A stretch of 64,000 bases of DNA. Origin: a virus. Lineage: Duplodnaviria > Caudoviricetes. The notes below the pieces were generated by a model. The model was not told the DNA's origin. It did not search any database and saw only the letters and a list, made by a program, of their open reading frames with translations. This document shows positions 39,446-46,362 of this stretch, one piece after another (positions within the stretch are counted from its first letter, which is position 1; every line of letters begins with the position of its first letter). A program made the translations under genes and the position numbers. The stretch spans positions 64,416-128,415 of IMG/VR virus record IMGVR_UViG_3300020036_009553. One strand, 5' to 3'.

Positions 39446-40342
39446 TTATGAGGATATAATTAAGGTGGAATATTCAAATCGCTCTGCTGGATCATTGGAG
39501 TCATCGCAAAATACACCAGAGTTAAATTTAATGTGGACGTACCCTAATTTATTGACGGGCGGAGTTATTAGTATTCCTGTTTCAGTAATCGTTGTGGTTA
39601 AATTAGTTTTAAATGTGGGATTCATATTCTTCCACCATTCTATTTGATCTGTTGGGGTTACATCAAAATATGGTCCACAAAAAAAGGAAATATGAAAAGG
39701 TTGGTCCTCACATATTAATATATTAGTAGATAGTTGGGTAGCCCCATCTATATGTGGGGATACAACTGCTTGTTTCAATGACCCATCTTCCCTGCCCACA
39801 GTCCGAATATGTAGTGTCTCTGTGGTAATATCACAATTATACGGAAGTCTGGCCATATTCTCATTAACCACGGCACAATATATGGATGTATTTTTTACAT
39901 TATAAAATCCCATAACTGGTAGAACAGCGATGTGCTCTGGAAATTCGGAATGTGTTATAATATCAATTAGTACCCCGTCACTCTTGCGACGGGCGATATA
40001 TCGTAGATTAGCAACAAACTCGTATTCTGATAGGTTGGTGGAAGGGGGAATTACTGCCAATAATACAAAATCACAATCTAATAATGAATGTATTATTGCG
40101 TTGAAGTCTATCGGGTGAACCAAAAATGTTTTCTCATTTAATGGTCCCGTTGGAGTAGTTGAATGTGCTATTACCATGGGGGAATCATGAATATCGTATG
40201 CTTTTCCGGGCATTACATGAAGTCCCATCGCTGGTCGTACACAATCGCTTATTCTACTACCAAATACACAATGAACAATATCTATGAATGAATCAAAAGC
40301 ATTTACTGCAGCAATGCCCTCTTTTACGTAAATATAATTCAT
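39446..40342 (-). CDS. hypothetical protein in the radical SAM operon (298 aa)
   Basis: co-oriented ORF starting 6 nt after the peptide gene. Confidence 0.75.
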   Translation of the reverse strand: MNYIYVKEGIAAVNAFDSFIDIVHCVFGSRISDCVRPAMGLHVMPGKAYDIHDSPMVIAHSTTPTGPLNEKTFLVHPIDFNAIIHSLLDCDFVLLAVIPPSTNLSEYEFVANLRYIARRKSDGVLIDIITHSEFPEHIAVLPVMGFYNVKNTSIYCAVVNENMARLPYNCDITTETLHIRTVGREDGSLKQAVVSPHIDGATQLSTNILICEDQPFHISFFCGPYFDVTPTDQIEWWKNMNPTFKTNLTTTITETGILITPPVNKLGYVHIKFNSGVFCDDSNDPAERFEYSTLIISS

Positions 40343-40348
40343 GTGTAA

Positions 40349-40561
40349 TTATAAAATCCCTCTGGTGCAATTGTTGTTAACCCAACAATTGCAAGCTGTT
40401 CCATAATCGTCGTAATACACGTGGGTATGACTTACCAATGCGTCAAGGCAGGCAATCATATCGTGAAACACTCCCACTGTGATGGGATCACCGATGTTAG
40501 GGGTAGCTTGAACGTTTGGTTGGGCGGTTGAACTAAATGCTGTATTATCAGAAGCGCTCAT
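40349..40561 (-). CDS. 70-aa His/Tyr/Cys-rich peptide, candidate radical SAM substrate
   Basis: AAGGA RBS; first gene after a promoter; C-terminus HTHVYYDDYGTACNCWVNNNCTRGIL. Confidence 0.8.
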   Translation of the reverse strand: MSASDNTAFSSTAQPNVQATPNIGDPITVGVFHDMIACLDALVSHTHVYYDDYGTACNCWVNNNCTRGIL

Positions 40562-40593
40562 AAGGTTTTTCCTTTATTATAATTTATATTTTT

Positions 40594-40622
40594 ATTATAC
40601 GACAATCGTATGCATAAGACAA
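40594..40622 (-). promoter_or_regulatory. sigma70-type promoter of the peptide-radical SAM operon
   Basis: TTGTCT(40622-40617)-N17-TATAAT(40599-40594). Confidence 0.7.
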
Positions 40623-40627
40623 CAATA

Positions 40628-41068
40628 TTAATAAGAATCGTCGTACCAGAAATGATAGTGGTGTAATCTAACTGCTAATATACGATTTCTCAAGGTATCC
40701 ACACTGGCTTTGGTGATGGCTGTTCCCTGTGCGCACGGATTGTTGATGTTATACGTGTACATGTATCCATTTACGTTATATGGGTATCCTGACGTTTCCC
40801 AGTGATCAAGTGTTGTAGTTGCCACTTGGTCATATCCTCCGGTGGTAACATTGTGTAAATCATAGATTTGGTGTGTATGATAACCAAACGTGGAAGTAAG
40901 ATAATTGATAGAACTCATCGTTGCTGCCGTAATGGACGCCCCTGTAGCAATGCCAGCTTTTATTGTTGCGTGAGCTGCCTTTGTAGACCAAGCATTCTCT
41001 ACATTAGTCGTTCGTGTAGCCTGGTAAAAAGTTAGCGGTTGTTGCCAATATTCATAATCCCACCCCAT
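40628..41068 (-). CDS. 146-aa aromatic/His-rich protein with two GxxIT...HxH repeats
   Basis: AAGGAG RBS; motif shared with the 70-aa peptide. Confidence 0.8.
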   Translation of the reverse strand: MGWDYEYWQQPLTFYQATRTTNVENAWSTKAAHATIKAGIATGASITAATMSSINYLTSTFGYHTHQIYDLHNVTTGGYDQVATTTLDHWETSGYPYNVNGYMYTYNINNPCAQGTAITKASVDTLRNRILAVRLHHYHFWYDDSY

Positions 41069-41083
41069 GTGTTAATCTCCTTT

Positions 41084-42526
41084 TTATGAATACACAGCAG
41101 GGTACACTTGTTTCCAAGCACCATTTGCTCTAATGTAAATTAAATTTCCAGAAACAAGAATATCACCATTCTTTTCTGTGCCACCAGTAGGGTTAATTCT
41201 TGGGGTATTGGCTGCGGTTACTCCTCCTAGGCCACCTGATATAGCATTTACTTGATCGACAACATATTTTTTAGTGGCAGCATCTTGGTTAGCTATTGGG
41301 TCTGCTACATTATGAACAAGCTGGTTATTCATGTTCACATTGGTGCCGTTTATTGATACTCCGCCGGCATTAAGTGTCGTACCATTAACAGTTGCTGCGG
41401 TTAATGTACCAGTCACTCCAGCGTTTCCAGAGACATTCAATGTTACTACGTTGGCGGTAGATAAAGTAGAAATTCCTGTTACACCAGCAGCTCCAGTAAC
41501 TGTCAGGGAAGAAATAGTTGCGCCACCATTTAAAGTAGCTGCTCCCGTTACGCCTAATGTTGTAGATACTGTAGCTGCACTTATAGTAGCTCCACCGTTC
41601 AATGTTGTGGTGCCGGAAACAATTAGGTTTCCTGTAATGGTTCCACCAGCCTTGAGTAAGTATAATCCGTTTGATGCGGTTTCTGAAGCAGATATGGCGG
41701 TTGTTACATAATCATATACAACCCCACCATTGGTAGCTTGTTTGTTGCCAGACGCCACAATGCCATTAGCCAGGTTGATGATTTTGAAGTTGTTCATATT
41801 CAAATCACCACCAAGCACCATATTTCCGCCACCACTCAGCAATGAGTTCCAAGCGGTTCCGTTCCAAATGTTTATTTCATTGGTGTTAGTATCATACCAA
41901 ATTGTACCACGCTGTGGATCTGATGGGGCTACGCTGGTTACCGTTACTGTTGTCGGGGAAATCCACTCTCCACTTCCGCCATTTGTGTAAGCGTTATAGA
42001 CCAATAGTCCATGTTCAGGAGAATTAGTAGGAGCTGTCCCTGACCCGCCAGGTGGAGTTAGATTGGTAAAATACCTTGGCATCCATGCCGCCCCAGCTTG
42101 CTTATATGCCGAATCCCAACGATACAATGTGTCATCAGCGGAACTATAATAATACGCACCAATGGTTGGATTACCTGGAGGTGCTGTGGCAACAATGCCT
42201 GTACCGTTTAACCTAGCCCACACATTTGATGAAGGATTAAACCACCACCATCCTTCATCATCAGCAAGACTTGAGTCATGGTAATAATAACGAATAGTAT
42301 TCCACAATTGCCCGGAAATAGGGCTAACCGGTGGCGATGATCCACCGAAAGTTTCAGCTAATCGAATCAGATCTTCATCAACTGCTTCTCCCCATTCAAG
42401 AGCACCACGTCCATATAAACGCAATGATGAGTTTGATTGGGCGCCGCCAGGACCATTGAATCCACCAGGCTGAATTAAAAATCCACTTTTTAGTGGATCC
42501 GATAGGGTGATATCGTATGTTGACAT
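41084..42526 (-). CDS. tail fibre-like structural protein (480 aa)
   Basis: same N-terminal domain as 31547..34165; G.IWYDT, DAATKKYV; CATAAATA at 42563-42570. Confidence 0.8.
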   Translation of the reverse strand: MSTYDITLSDPLKSGFLIQPGGFNGPGGAQSNSSLRLYGRGALEWGEAVDEDLIRLAETFGGSSPPVSPISGQLWNTIRYYYHDSSLADDEGWWWFNPSSNVWARLNGTGIVATAPPGNPTIGAYYYSSADDTLYRWDSAYKQAGAAWMPRYFTNLTPPGGSGTAPTNSPEHGLLVYNAYTNGGSGEWISPTTVTVTSVAPSDPQRGTIWYDTNTNEINIWNGTAWNSLLSGGGNMVLGGDLNMNNFKIINLANGIVASGNKQATNGGVVYDYVTTAISASETASNGLYLLKAGGTITGNLIVSGTTTLNGGATISAATVSTTLGVTGAATLNGGATISSLTVTGAAGVTGISTLSTANVVTLNVSGNAGVTGTLTAATVNGTTLNAGGVSINGTNVNMNNQLVHNVADPIANQDAATKKYVVDQVNAISGGLGGVTAANTPRINPTGGTEKNGDILVSGNLIYIRANGAWKQVYPAVYS

Positions 42527-42587: not shown

Positions 42588-43316
42588 TTAGAGATCTAAT
42601 TGGGTTAGATATTTTTTAGCTTCATTAACTATTTCAGGCCGCGTAGAAAATTGTTCTTTCCAATAGGTTGGCCGAATTAATGTTTCCAATATAGTTTTTT
42701 GTTCGGTAGTTGTATTTGATACAAAGTATTTTTTGAACGCAGTACTATGTAATAACACCCACGGAGATATTTTTCGTACGCGAATCCAATGGATTAAATC
42801 ATAGGGATCAATAACATTGAATACCGCAGACGGATCAACATTGTGCAAAGTTGCAGTTTTAACCAATAAGGTAATTGATTGTTTTATCAAATCAACAGGG
42901 TCAGCTTGTTTATCAACATACTCAATATACAAAGTATACACAGCATCAGATACCCACATGCCAGGAGGGTATTTTTGTTCTGAGGCAAACCAAATAAATT
43001 TATCGGGAAATGGCAATTCAACTTTTTTTACGAATTTCGTAAAGTTGATAAACGTTCTGAAATAGTTAGAGTTCATAAAGGTATCAGGAGTGGGGGTAGG
43101 TTTTTTGGAATACCTATACCAAGTTTGGTAATATATCCACGCTCCTTGTCCTAATGGGGTCTTAAATTCATTGAATCGTTTTATCTGTTTACATTCGTGA
43201 GCAACAAATCGTGACTCTGTTAAAAAAGCATGTTTACAAAACTTGCAGGTAAACGTCTGCCGTTGTTTTACTGGGTGCTGTGGCAAAATTGGCACAATTG
43301 ACGAGAAATCTACCAT
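42588..43316 (-). CDS. hypothetical protein with an N-terminal zinc finger
   Basis: CKFC...F....F..HEC. Confidence 0.7.
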   Translation of the reverse strand: MVDFSSIVPILPQHPVKQRQTFTCKFCKHAFLTESRFVAHECKQIKRFNEFKTPLGQGAWIYYQTWYRYSKKPTPTPDTFMNSNYFRTFINFTKFVKKVELPFPDKFIWFASEQKYPPGMWVSDAVYTLYIEYVDKQADPVDLIKQSITLLVKTATLHNVDPSAVFNVIDPYDLIHWIRVRKISPWVLLHSTAFKKYFVSNTTTEQKTILETLIRPTYWKEQFSTRPEIVNEAKKYLTQLDL

Positions 43317-45164: not shown

Positions 45165-45190
45165 ATAAAACCTCCAATTGGAGGTTTTAT
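45165..45190 (-). terminator. intrinsic terminator
   Basis: ataaaacctcc-aatt-ggaggttttat. Confidence 0.7.
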
Positions 45191-46362
45191 GCGTAGATGC
45201 TCAATTTGTGTTTTTCCAATACTTGTTTAATAGCAGCTAATTCCCATAATTCATCTTGAGAGAGTTCTTCTCCATCTGCTAATCGTTGTGTTAACCAGCG
45301 ATGATACGCAATTAATTCACTAATTTTTTCGGTTGGATTTTTAGGATCCCATATTCCAATGTATGGTCGTGTGTGACGTTGGGTGGGGGGTGGGAGGGAG
45401 ACATCTGGGTTGAGATGAATTGGTTCTACAATTGGTTCTACAATTGGTTCTACAATTGGTTCTACAATTGGTTCTACAATTGGTTCTACAATTGGTTCTA
45501 CAATTGGTTCTACAATTGGTTCTACAATTGGTTCTACAATTGGTTCTTTTAGAACCTTATCTAAATTCACGGAAGCAGGTGACCGAAATGCTCGTTTGAA
45601 CTCAGCGAGAGTTGGAGGTTGTCTATTTAGATCAAACGCAGGAGTACTTAACTGAGGTGAAGCGACAGATTGTTTAAGATCTTCTCGCCGCTGTCTTAAT
45701 GCAACGTTAAGAGCTAGGGTGAGAGCGACAGCAAATGGATCAAATGCAAAAATAATCAAGTAAATCAAATATTTAGTAGCGTTATCGGTATCCAATCCAA
45801 CCGCTTTAGCAATGTACGTAATGGGCCCTACGTGAGCTTCTGTTTGAATGAGTTTTTGTCTTGTTTCTAGTACTTTTGCATCTAATTCGCTAATTCTTGC
45901 CGTAACGGATGTTTGTTCATCTTTAAACCCTTTCATGAGTTGTGTGCGACCTCTGACAGAATTTGCAGGTAATTGAGAAATTTGTGTATCTATATTAGTT
46001 TTGCGGTCTATTAATCGGGTCTTTTCTTCGGTTAATAATTTAACTTGTTCTTCAAGTTGTTTGAGAGGGAGAGAGTCAGTTTGGTATCCTGCACTCAAAT
46101 ACCCAAAGTGTCCAATTCCTGTCACAAACATCAAATCAACGACAAAAAATAAAATGGAGGCTTTAAGCAAAATCTGCGTTTTATCCCAATACCTATAAAG
46201 ATATGAAGCTCCAACTAGCTTTGCTATACCAAGTGCCACCCCCATTATCACAACAGGCCAAAAGATTCCATGGAAGGTAGTTGCTAATCCCCACACACTA
46301 AAAAATTCTGATACTGATGCTAAAAAGAACGCACTAAACCCCAATAATATGATAAACGCCAT
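45187..46362 (-). CDS. multi-pass membrane protein with coiled coil and EPIV repeat
   Basis: three N-terminal TMs, coiled coil, IIFAFDP.A TM. Confidence 0.8.
   Translation of the reverse strand: MAFIILLGFSAFFLASVSEFFSVWGLATTFHGIFWPVVIMGVALGIAKLVGASYLYRYWDKTQILLKASILFFVVDLMFVTGIGHFGYLSAGYQTDSLPLKQLEEQVKLLTEEKTRLIDRKTNIDTQISQLPANSVRGRTQLMKGFKDEQTSVTARISELDAKVLETRQKLIQTEAHVGPITYIAKAVGLDTDNATKYLIYLIIFAFDPFAVALTLALNVALRQRREDLKQSVASPQLSTPAFDLNRQPPTLAEFKRAFRSPASVNLDKVLKEPIVEPIVEPIVEPIVEPIVEPIVEPIVEPIVEPIVEPIVEPIHLNPDVSLPPPTQRHTRPYIGIWDPKNPTEKISELIAYHRWLTQRLADGEELSQDELWELAAIKQVLEKHKLSIYA
45418..45547. repeat. perfect 12-bp tandem repeat, about 10.8 copies
   Basis: (aattggttctac)n encoding (EPIV)n. 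Confidence 0.97.

Follow-up and report, generated by a model that had tools for sequence, protein, structure and literature searches.

A helix-HxH module shared by a small two-module protein and a cysteine-tailed peptide in an uncultured large phage, and its possible role in a modified fibre tip

Comparison with described systems

Histidine pairs of the pattern HxH form metal sites in phage fibres and spikes, among them the Zn site of T4 gp12 and the spike apices of P2 gpV and phi92 gp138. In the tip of the T4 fibre protein gp37, HxH pairs bind Fe octahedrally in a needle with seven Fe (as cited in PMC11705849). The present analysis concerns a stretch of 64,000 nucleotides, hereafter the window (positions 64,416 to 128,415 of the IMG/VR record IMGVR_UViG_3300020036_009553), which makes up the latter half of a fragment of 128 kb, with an estimated completeness of 57%, from an uncultured large phage. 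On its minus strand lies a tightly packed row of genes that encode a fibre-like protein of 480 amino acids, a 146-residue protein with two copies of a helix-HxH module, a 70-residue peptide with a third copy and a Cys-rich tail, a 298-residue protein and then four CxxxCxxC proteins (Table 1). Three of these four match the radical S-adenosylmethionine (SAM) family; for enzymes 1 and 4 there are also matches to peptide maturase families of the SPASM type. The presumed unit resembles the fibre and spike sites in having three HxH pairs, which are its sole invariant residues apart from Met1, and in its occurrence in phage fibre loci. Unlike in those sites, the pairs would come from two chains (2 + 1) or from one and not from a homotrimer, and each pair follows an amphipathic helix of 14-17 residues instead of lying within beta-structure.

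The enzymes have counterparts of a different kind. QhpC, a small subunit of quinohemoprotein amine dehydrogenase, is cross-linked by a SPASM enzyme, with thioethers from Cys to Asp or Glu, and remains in a larger complex as a structural component; QhpD/QhpC are unrelated to the phage system in substrate and in biological setting. As in the ranthipeptide and SCIFF systems (PapB-PapA for freyrasin, CteB-CteA), a SPASM radical SAM gene lies beside that of a small Cys-rich substrate in which Cys alternates with the usual thioether acceptors Asn, Gln, Asp and Glu. In contrast to those systems, however, there are four radical SAM genes and not one, the apparent leader is one third of what is presumably a folded three-module domain, the genes are phage-encoded, the same Cys ladder also ends true tail fibres, and the loci that were read showed no recognisable protease or exporter. 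Enzyme 1 has its best NCBIfam match in PapB (9e-31, 107 bits against a cut-off of 340) and its second best in QhpD (1.8e-18, 66.5 bits against 453), with the CXXX-repeat family next; the SCIFF maturase reaches 50.5 bits against a cut-off of 425, and the enzyme falls into none of the named maturase families (PapB, ScfB, CteB). Nor is it a member of TIGR04463 (3.7e-15, 55.6 bits against 525), the family of CrpC from Methanococcus voltae, which introduces ranthionine cross-links into CrpA, a Cys-rich, protein-sized and non-secreted substrate (PMC13692751). CrpC/CrpA is a precedent for the phage ladder in that SPASM thioether chemistry acts on a protein, although CrpA comes from an archaeon rather than a virus and lacks HxH modules.

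The full gene arrangement has one cultured parallel. In the Ralstonia jumbo phage RP12, ORF073-080 comprise a fibre-like protein, a two-module protein (ORF074, phrog_31780), the peptide, a protein of about 300 residues and four radical SAM genes in the same order; the two-module proteins are 28% and the peptides 45% identical. Among 50,697 phage records no cultured relative other than RP12 was found (the peptide ORF is also present in RP31), and in these records megablast of the region and tblastn of the 146-residue protein gave zero matches. PMC5468394 mentions the RP12 cluster only in the form of scattered genes labelled 'radical SAM / Fe-S oxidoreductase / MoaA'. We found no published description of the system in the literature on phage radical SAM enzymes with fibres or with ribosomally made peptides that carry post-translational modifications (RiPPs); one paper on a cyanophage radical SAM protein was considered and set aside, since it concerns an unrelated gene. 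The parts are of known kinds, namely HxH motifs and SPASM maturases with Cys-rich substrates, and their combination, a proposed split pseudo-trimeric His module that would also act as the leader of a radical-SAM-modified ladder in phage fibre loci, is undescribed in the literature found.

Three copies of the module and their two carriers

The initial annotation had seen three copies of the module in the two proteins, with the peptide alone continuing into a Cys-rich tail. All three stretches, and the tail, are confirmed in the translations of the minus-strand open reading frames (ORFs). The pattern G..[IV]-x15-19-HxHxxxD was run over the complete six-frame translation of the window, 1,059 segments from stop to stop with 68,913 residues in total, and matched three times, at the three modules. 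Direct BLASTP of the 146-residue protein against the peptide is weak (E 0.02). The family profiles nevertheless match clearly: hhalign aligns the peptide family to the two-module family with a probability of 95% (E 3e-8), the peptide module falling on module 2, and module 1 to module 2 with a probability of 97% (E 1e-10). Hidden Markov models (HMMs) made without the window's own clade still recover the partner protein in both directions (E 5e-5). On the strength of these profile matches, the three copies are homologous, by common descent and not by chance.

When 1.84 billion representative proteins were searched with a two-module profile, 268 clusters (50% identity) passed E<=1e-3, and 182 passed E<=1e-10; the majority have 120-160 residues. 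Homologues keep the motif: H64, H66, H137 and H139 are the only invariant residues in 125 aligned two-module proteins (D70, G78 and D143 are nearly so), and in 16 aligned peptides H45, T46, H47, Y50, D51, Y53, C59, C65, R67 and G68 are invariant. Among the best 150 HMM matches the module is N-terminal in small proteins, with P0108, where it is C-terminal, as the one exception, and no long fibre occurs among them. Neither the 146-residue protein nor the peptide matches any Pfam family at E<=0.1, including the phage tail collar domain PF07484, the HxH-bearing domain of T4 gp12, and NCBIfam gave no match either. The phrog_31780 profile matches the 146-residue protein at 9.8e-5 (residues 30-146), the peptide at 0.011 and RP12 ORF074 at 1e-86, and a word-based homologue search returned merely 2-3 close relatives for each of the two proteins. 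Several two-module proteins carry additional parts: a beta-propeller (P0049) or a Gly-rich stretch (L013) is inserted between modules 1 and 2, and domains are appended at the C-terminus, Hint-containing or other (L004, P0063, P0129), or at the N-terminus, where P0108 has a lectin-like domain. This architecture implies that modules 1 and 2 meet in space and serve, in the manner of adhesins, as a scaffold for the display of variable domains. As a separate observation, a Hint module of the intein/hedgehog type lies within a long C-terminal extension in L004:6617-7975, P0063, P0129 and P0095 (Hom_end_hint 2.6e-9 in P0129), which suggests self-cleaving or self-ligating tips.

The peptide has 40 distinct homologues from phage loci, many on IMG/VR contigs, and H-x-H is present in all 40. 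Their consensus reads G-[DE]-x-[IV]-[ST]-A-D-T-[FY]-x-Q-M-L-x-[IV]-L-[DE]-x-L-x-x-H-x-H-[IT]-F-Y-D-D-Y-x-T-x-(C-X)n-x-R-G-x-[LIV]. At the X of C-X-C in the relatives we counted N 48, Q 41, A 21, E 15 and D 13 times; the window's clade has a degenerate tail, CNCWVNNNC (C-N-C...C), with three Cys. In RP12 and RP31 the peptide ORF is present but unannotated. The peptide is extended by 140 residues at its N-terminus in P0157, and in P0160 the ladder is internal and followed by a Pro-rich linker and a domain of 180 residues. Two further relatives, P0158 (206 residues) and L077:9793-10416 (-), contain a mini-intein inside the ladder (...CNCNCN / CFEEETKV...VTMN / CTCCVRGMVW) that is homologous to the intein in a phage portal gene (L019:4680-7457).

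The two carriers travel together. Loci were fetched through radical SAM enzyme 1 alone, which yielded 123 confirmed viral stretches, the 60 strongest being clear orthologues. Peptide and two-module gene are both present in 57 of these 60; in the three exceptions neither a peptide nor a two-module ORF was found within the fetched DNA, and in one of them (L058) the enzyme gene starts at contig base 53. The gene order varies: the genes may adjoin, be separated by 2 kb, follow downstream of the enzymes or lie on the opposite strand, and co-occurrence in spite of such variation argues that the linkage is functional rather than accidental. Every complete related locus listed has four CxxxCxxC genes. 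In many relatives, though not in the window, the fourth radical SAM gene is followed by a DUF3050 (haem-oxygenase-like di-iron) enzyme, for example L006:14214-15050 and L035:12050-12805 (Pfam 2e-68 and 1e-76), which the RP12 annotation calls MgoB-like. Some related cassettes contain a B12-binding (class B) radical SAM gene (L060:3047-5098; L066:13346-15238 (-); L090:8269-9621), which hints at an extra methylation or another step.

Natural fusions tell how the modules are likely to be combined. In P0159 (230 residues) a single chain consists of module 1, module 2, the peptide module and the tail CACNCNCNCTRGIL. P0152 (221 residues) and P0104 (332 residues) likewise have three modules, the third of the peptide type (TF..ML..L..L.DH.H.FDD.Y), without a Cys ladder; scans of contigs from viruses, metagenomes and genomes retrieved none that encodes P0152, P0104, P0159 or P0160. 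In a distant family of phages (L086-L094), one chain of 176-200 residues has three helix-HxH modules and a (Cys-Glu/Thr/Gln)n tail; its gene lies among tail and baseplate genes and has two radical SAM genes, one SPASM and one B12-type, as neighbours. When these ten three-module chains are aligned, no residue is invariant except Met1 and the six His. Three modules per single tail point to a 2 + 1 pseudo-trimer, a heterodimer in the phage of the window, and not to a homotrimer of the peptide as the initial annotation had implied. Judged from these fusions, the 146-residue protein (two modules) and the peptide (one module) most likely assemble into a single three-module 2 + 1 pseudo-trimer.

An AlphaFold2 model of the 146-residue protein, based on 125 sequences, is a compact helical fold with a predicted local distance difference test score (pLDDT) of 77.8 and a predicted template modelling score of 0.65. 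Its helices span residues 30-39, 48-61 and 120-136, and each HxH pair stands directly after a long helix. MAFFT alignments that mixed two- and three-module proteins misplaced module 2 and were left out of folding. Among viral fold models in BFVD the protein matches RP12 ORF074 (template modelling score 0.63-0.72); the search was otherwise uninformative.

Fibre context, proposed assembly and alternative readings

Viral contigs were scanned for the DNA pattern of CNCNCNC, 20 loci were read and six ladder-ending proteins were scanned against PHROGs. Many viral proteins of 173-616 residues end in a Cys-Asn ladder. All six scanned proteins match tail-fibre families, two of them strongly (phrog_5073, phrog_6320; E 1e-48 to 1e-70), and a CxxxCxxC protein of about 440-510 residues follows after a helper-sized gap in the majority of the 20 loci; the one scanned, in L168, falls into phrog_1802, the PHROG of the window's enzymes. 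In L140, L191 and L168 a CxxxCxxC protein of about 450 residues comes after the helper-sized gene. That true tail fibres end in the same ladder, with genes of the same radical SAM family close by, supports a role at the fibre tip and favours the earlier suggestion of chemically tailored tips. From these gene contexts, the pair of ladder and enzyme is a presumptive general feature of fibre tips, and the three-module HxH unit would be one specific carrier of this pair. A connection to fibres is also borne out by the C-terminal motif W[RK]Q[IV][FY]PAVYS of the fibre-like protein, which is linked to the system in 13 of 16 loci and is carried in two lineages by a protein of 90 residues. Nothing, however, shows the proposed descent from a homotrimeric tip module like that of T4 gp12 or gp37, and the searches against solved structures gave zero sequence or fold matches.

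We propose the following assembly. The helix-HxH module of the peptide would dock to the two modules of the 146-residue protein, as the fusions and the co-occurrence suggest, so that the three amphipathic helices pack together and the three HxH pairs, six His in all, form a shared site. By analogy to the His6 sites on the axis of fibres and spikes, as in T4 gp37, these six His would most plausibly act as a metal cage that locks the unit. The front half of the peptide would then be a docking and assembly element and not a throw-away leader. The single C-terminal Cys-X ladder would project from the unit as the substrate of the four co-transcribed radical SAM/SPASM enzymes, which probably introduce thioether cross-links from Cys to Asn, Gln, Asp or Glu carbons, given the enzyme families and the CrpC/CrpA precedent. 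The finished unit, along with the upstream fibre-like protein and its C-terminal ...AWKQVYPAVYS, would probably become part of the fibre apparatus, as the gene neighbourhood and the ladder-ended fibres suggest. We put the probability of a three-module unit with a shared six-His site and a single enzyme-modified Cys ladder, as part of the fibre apparatus, at roughly 0.55. The more specific version, a host-recognition part of the fibre in which a split pseudo-trimer closes a six-His metal cage and dedicated radical SAM enzymes cross-link the ladder, is possible and put forward tentatively.

If this assembly is true, phages apply the chemistry of peptide antibiotics, radical SAM thioether formation, to their own particle, and what would be called the leader of a RiPP can serve as a structural docking module instead of a disposable tag. 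The more specific version would represent a new class of post-translational modification of virions and a novel means of placing an asymmetric, one-tailed tip on a three-fold fibre. The system also raises questions of fibre-tip stability, host range and metal use. The system is widespread, as seen from the two-module clusters, the viral stretches found through enzyme 1 and the ladder-ended fibres in further viral loci, and the Ralstonia phages RP12 and RP31 are cultured models.

Several observations weigh against the proposed assembly. Among the 32 proteins that mass spectrometry of gel bands detected in RP31 virions, ORF68-71, to which the 480-residue, 146-residue and 298-residue proteins are homologous, do not appear. 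The ladder-ending tail fibres have no HxH module directly before the ladder, which means that module and ladder are separable, and in the distant single-chain family L086-L094 the Asp of HxHxxxD is not retained. A natural three-module chain of that family (L089) gave a poor AlphaFold2 model (pLDDT 50). Comparison with known structures did not help: a profile search found nothing real among PDB sequences (a His-tag artefact and a weak portal match were discarded), Foldseek gave zero PDB matches at E<=0.001, and the best match in the wide VIA search (Z 4.8) was to generic helical chains and TssK. Finally, the cluster of the window adjoins T4-type replication genes (clamp loader, helicase, UvsX), which lie upstream of the row, and a consensus scan gives the peptide a host-type promoter match of its own.

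Some of these points would suit a conventional RiPP, in which the front half of the peptide is a leader for the enzymes, or for the 146-residue protein as a chaperone, and is cut off, while the Cys core is released for host takeover, action against competitors or as a signal and is not part of the virion. The layout is that of a precursor with its maturases, the best match of enzyme 1 is the PapB ranthipeptide maturase family, and the promoter match, the unlisted homologues in the RP31 virion proteome and the adjoining replication genes fit as well. We nevertheless consider this reading unlikely. In the loci that were read closely, neither a protease nor an exporter was seen, and the nameable accessory genes are the DUF3050 oxidase and the B12 radical SAMs; the would-be leader exceeds most leaders in conservation and belongs to a folded three-module protein in the fusions; and with the ladder internal in P0160 there is no terminal core to be released. 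The same ladder at the C-terminus of the proteins of 173-616 residues, all six scanned of which match tail-fibre PHROGs, and the adhesin-like inserts in two-module proteins also speak against a released product.

It is also conceivable that the radical SAM enzymes act on the conserved His (and Tyr/Asp), for example to form a His- or Tyr-based cyclophane or cross-link, so that HxH would be a modification motif and not a metal site, and both proteins would be modified. Four radical SAM genes face only three Cys in the window's tail, FYDDY is strictly conserved after the HxH of the peptides, and the weak NCBIfam matches include the cyclophane-forming YhhB, GrrM and the His-Xaa-Ser maturase HxsB. 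Those matches, though, are far below their cut-offs and no better than many other SPASM families, the minimal distant systems keep all six His with two radical SAM enzymes only, and the residues that flank HxH differ between the modules, which leaves no shared three-residue acceptor pattern; modified histidines thus appear quite improbable to us. That the short shared motif arose by convergence or chance, and that the two products do not interact, would agree with the weak direct BLASTP score, but is hardly credible in view of the profile comparisons, the co-occurrence in the orthologous loci and several independent gene fusions. Of the readings considered, we favour the three-module unit with its single modified ladder.

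Gene row and neighbouring features

The 480-residue fibre-like protein has weak PHROG matches to phrog_2647 (head decoration, 5.9e-5) and phrog_20787 (virion structural protein, 8e-4), which are head-and-packaging or virion-structural and not tail-fibre families; its RP12 homologue, ORF073, is annotated as YomR-like. By eye, its C-terminus had some likeness to the T4 fibritin foldon, an idea that was dropped because Pfam Fibritin_C matches nothing in the genome. For the 298-residue protein there were zero Pfam, PHROG or NCBIfam matches, and its ESM Atlas model is poor; it accompanies the peptide in most loci examined and is absent from the minimal L086-L094 systems. The initial annotation gave the peptide a sigma70 promoter of its own. 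A sigma70-type match does precede the gene, but in most relatives the two-module and peptide genes abut or overlap and the gap that holds the match is not conserved; a separate promoter is therefore not a conserved trait, and the consensus match is specific to the window.

Table 1. Features of the gene row and of related loci (positions in the window unless another locus is named)
Feature	Position	Strand	Remarks
480-aa fibre-like protein	41084..42526	minus	ORF; C-terminus (41084-41170) NGDILVSGNLIYIRANGAWKQVYPAVYS
146-aa two-module protein	40628..41068	minus	distant member of the RP12 ORF074 family (phrog_31780)
Module 1, residues 43-70 of the 146-aa protein	40859..40942	minus	GASITAATMSSINYLTSTFGYHTHQIYD
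Module 2, residues 115-143 of the 146-aa protein	40640..40726	minus	GTAITKASVDTLRNRILAVRLHHYHFWYD
Sigma70-like promoter match	40594..40622	minus	TTGTCT-17-TATAAT; 10/12 consensus positions; in the 66-bp gap before the peptide gene
70-aa peptide gene	40349..40561	minus	ORF; ribosome-binding site AAAGGA upstream
Peptide module (third copy), residues 24-51 of the 70-aa ORF	40409..40492	minus	GDPITVGVFHDMIACLDALVSHTHVYYD
Peptide Cys tail	40352..40402	minus	GTACNCWVNNNCTRGIL; degenerate form of the relatives' (Cys-X)n-x-RG-x-[LIV] ladder
298-aa protein	39446..40342	minus	homologues of about 300 aa adjoin the peptide in related loci
Radical SAM/SPASM enzyme 1, 570 aa	37709..39421	minus	PF04055 1.2e-16; phrog_1802
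Radical SAM enzyme 2, 372 aa	36640..37758	minus	PF04055 2.5e-8; phrog_1802 2.4e-33
Divergent CxxxCxxC protein 3, 380 aa	35513..36655	minus	CYSGCKIC motif; phrog_36229 3e-41; no Pfam match
Radical SAM/SPASM enzyme 4, 422 aa	34248..35516	minus	CNYSCGYC at residue 66; phrog_1802 2.7e-44; NCBIfam SPASM maturase matches
RP12 peptide gene, 65 aa	L001:8941-9138 (record 82888-83085)		absent from the GenBank annotation
Ladder-ending tail-fibre-like protein	L140:8663-10513		
Ladder-ending tail-fibre-like protein	L191:9596-11233	minus	
Ladder-ending tail-fibre-like protein	L168:9294-10469	minus	

Two further proteins of the window were recorded in passing. A predicted membrane protein of 391 residues (45187-46362 (-)) contains eleven tandem EPIV units and has zero PHROG matches. 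Between the clamp-loader genes and the cassette sits a protein of 242 residues (42588-43316 (-); phrog_11058 8e-47) with a zinc-finger-like N-terminus, C-x2-C...H-x-C, and its placement is the same in L002, L014 and L015.

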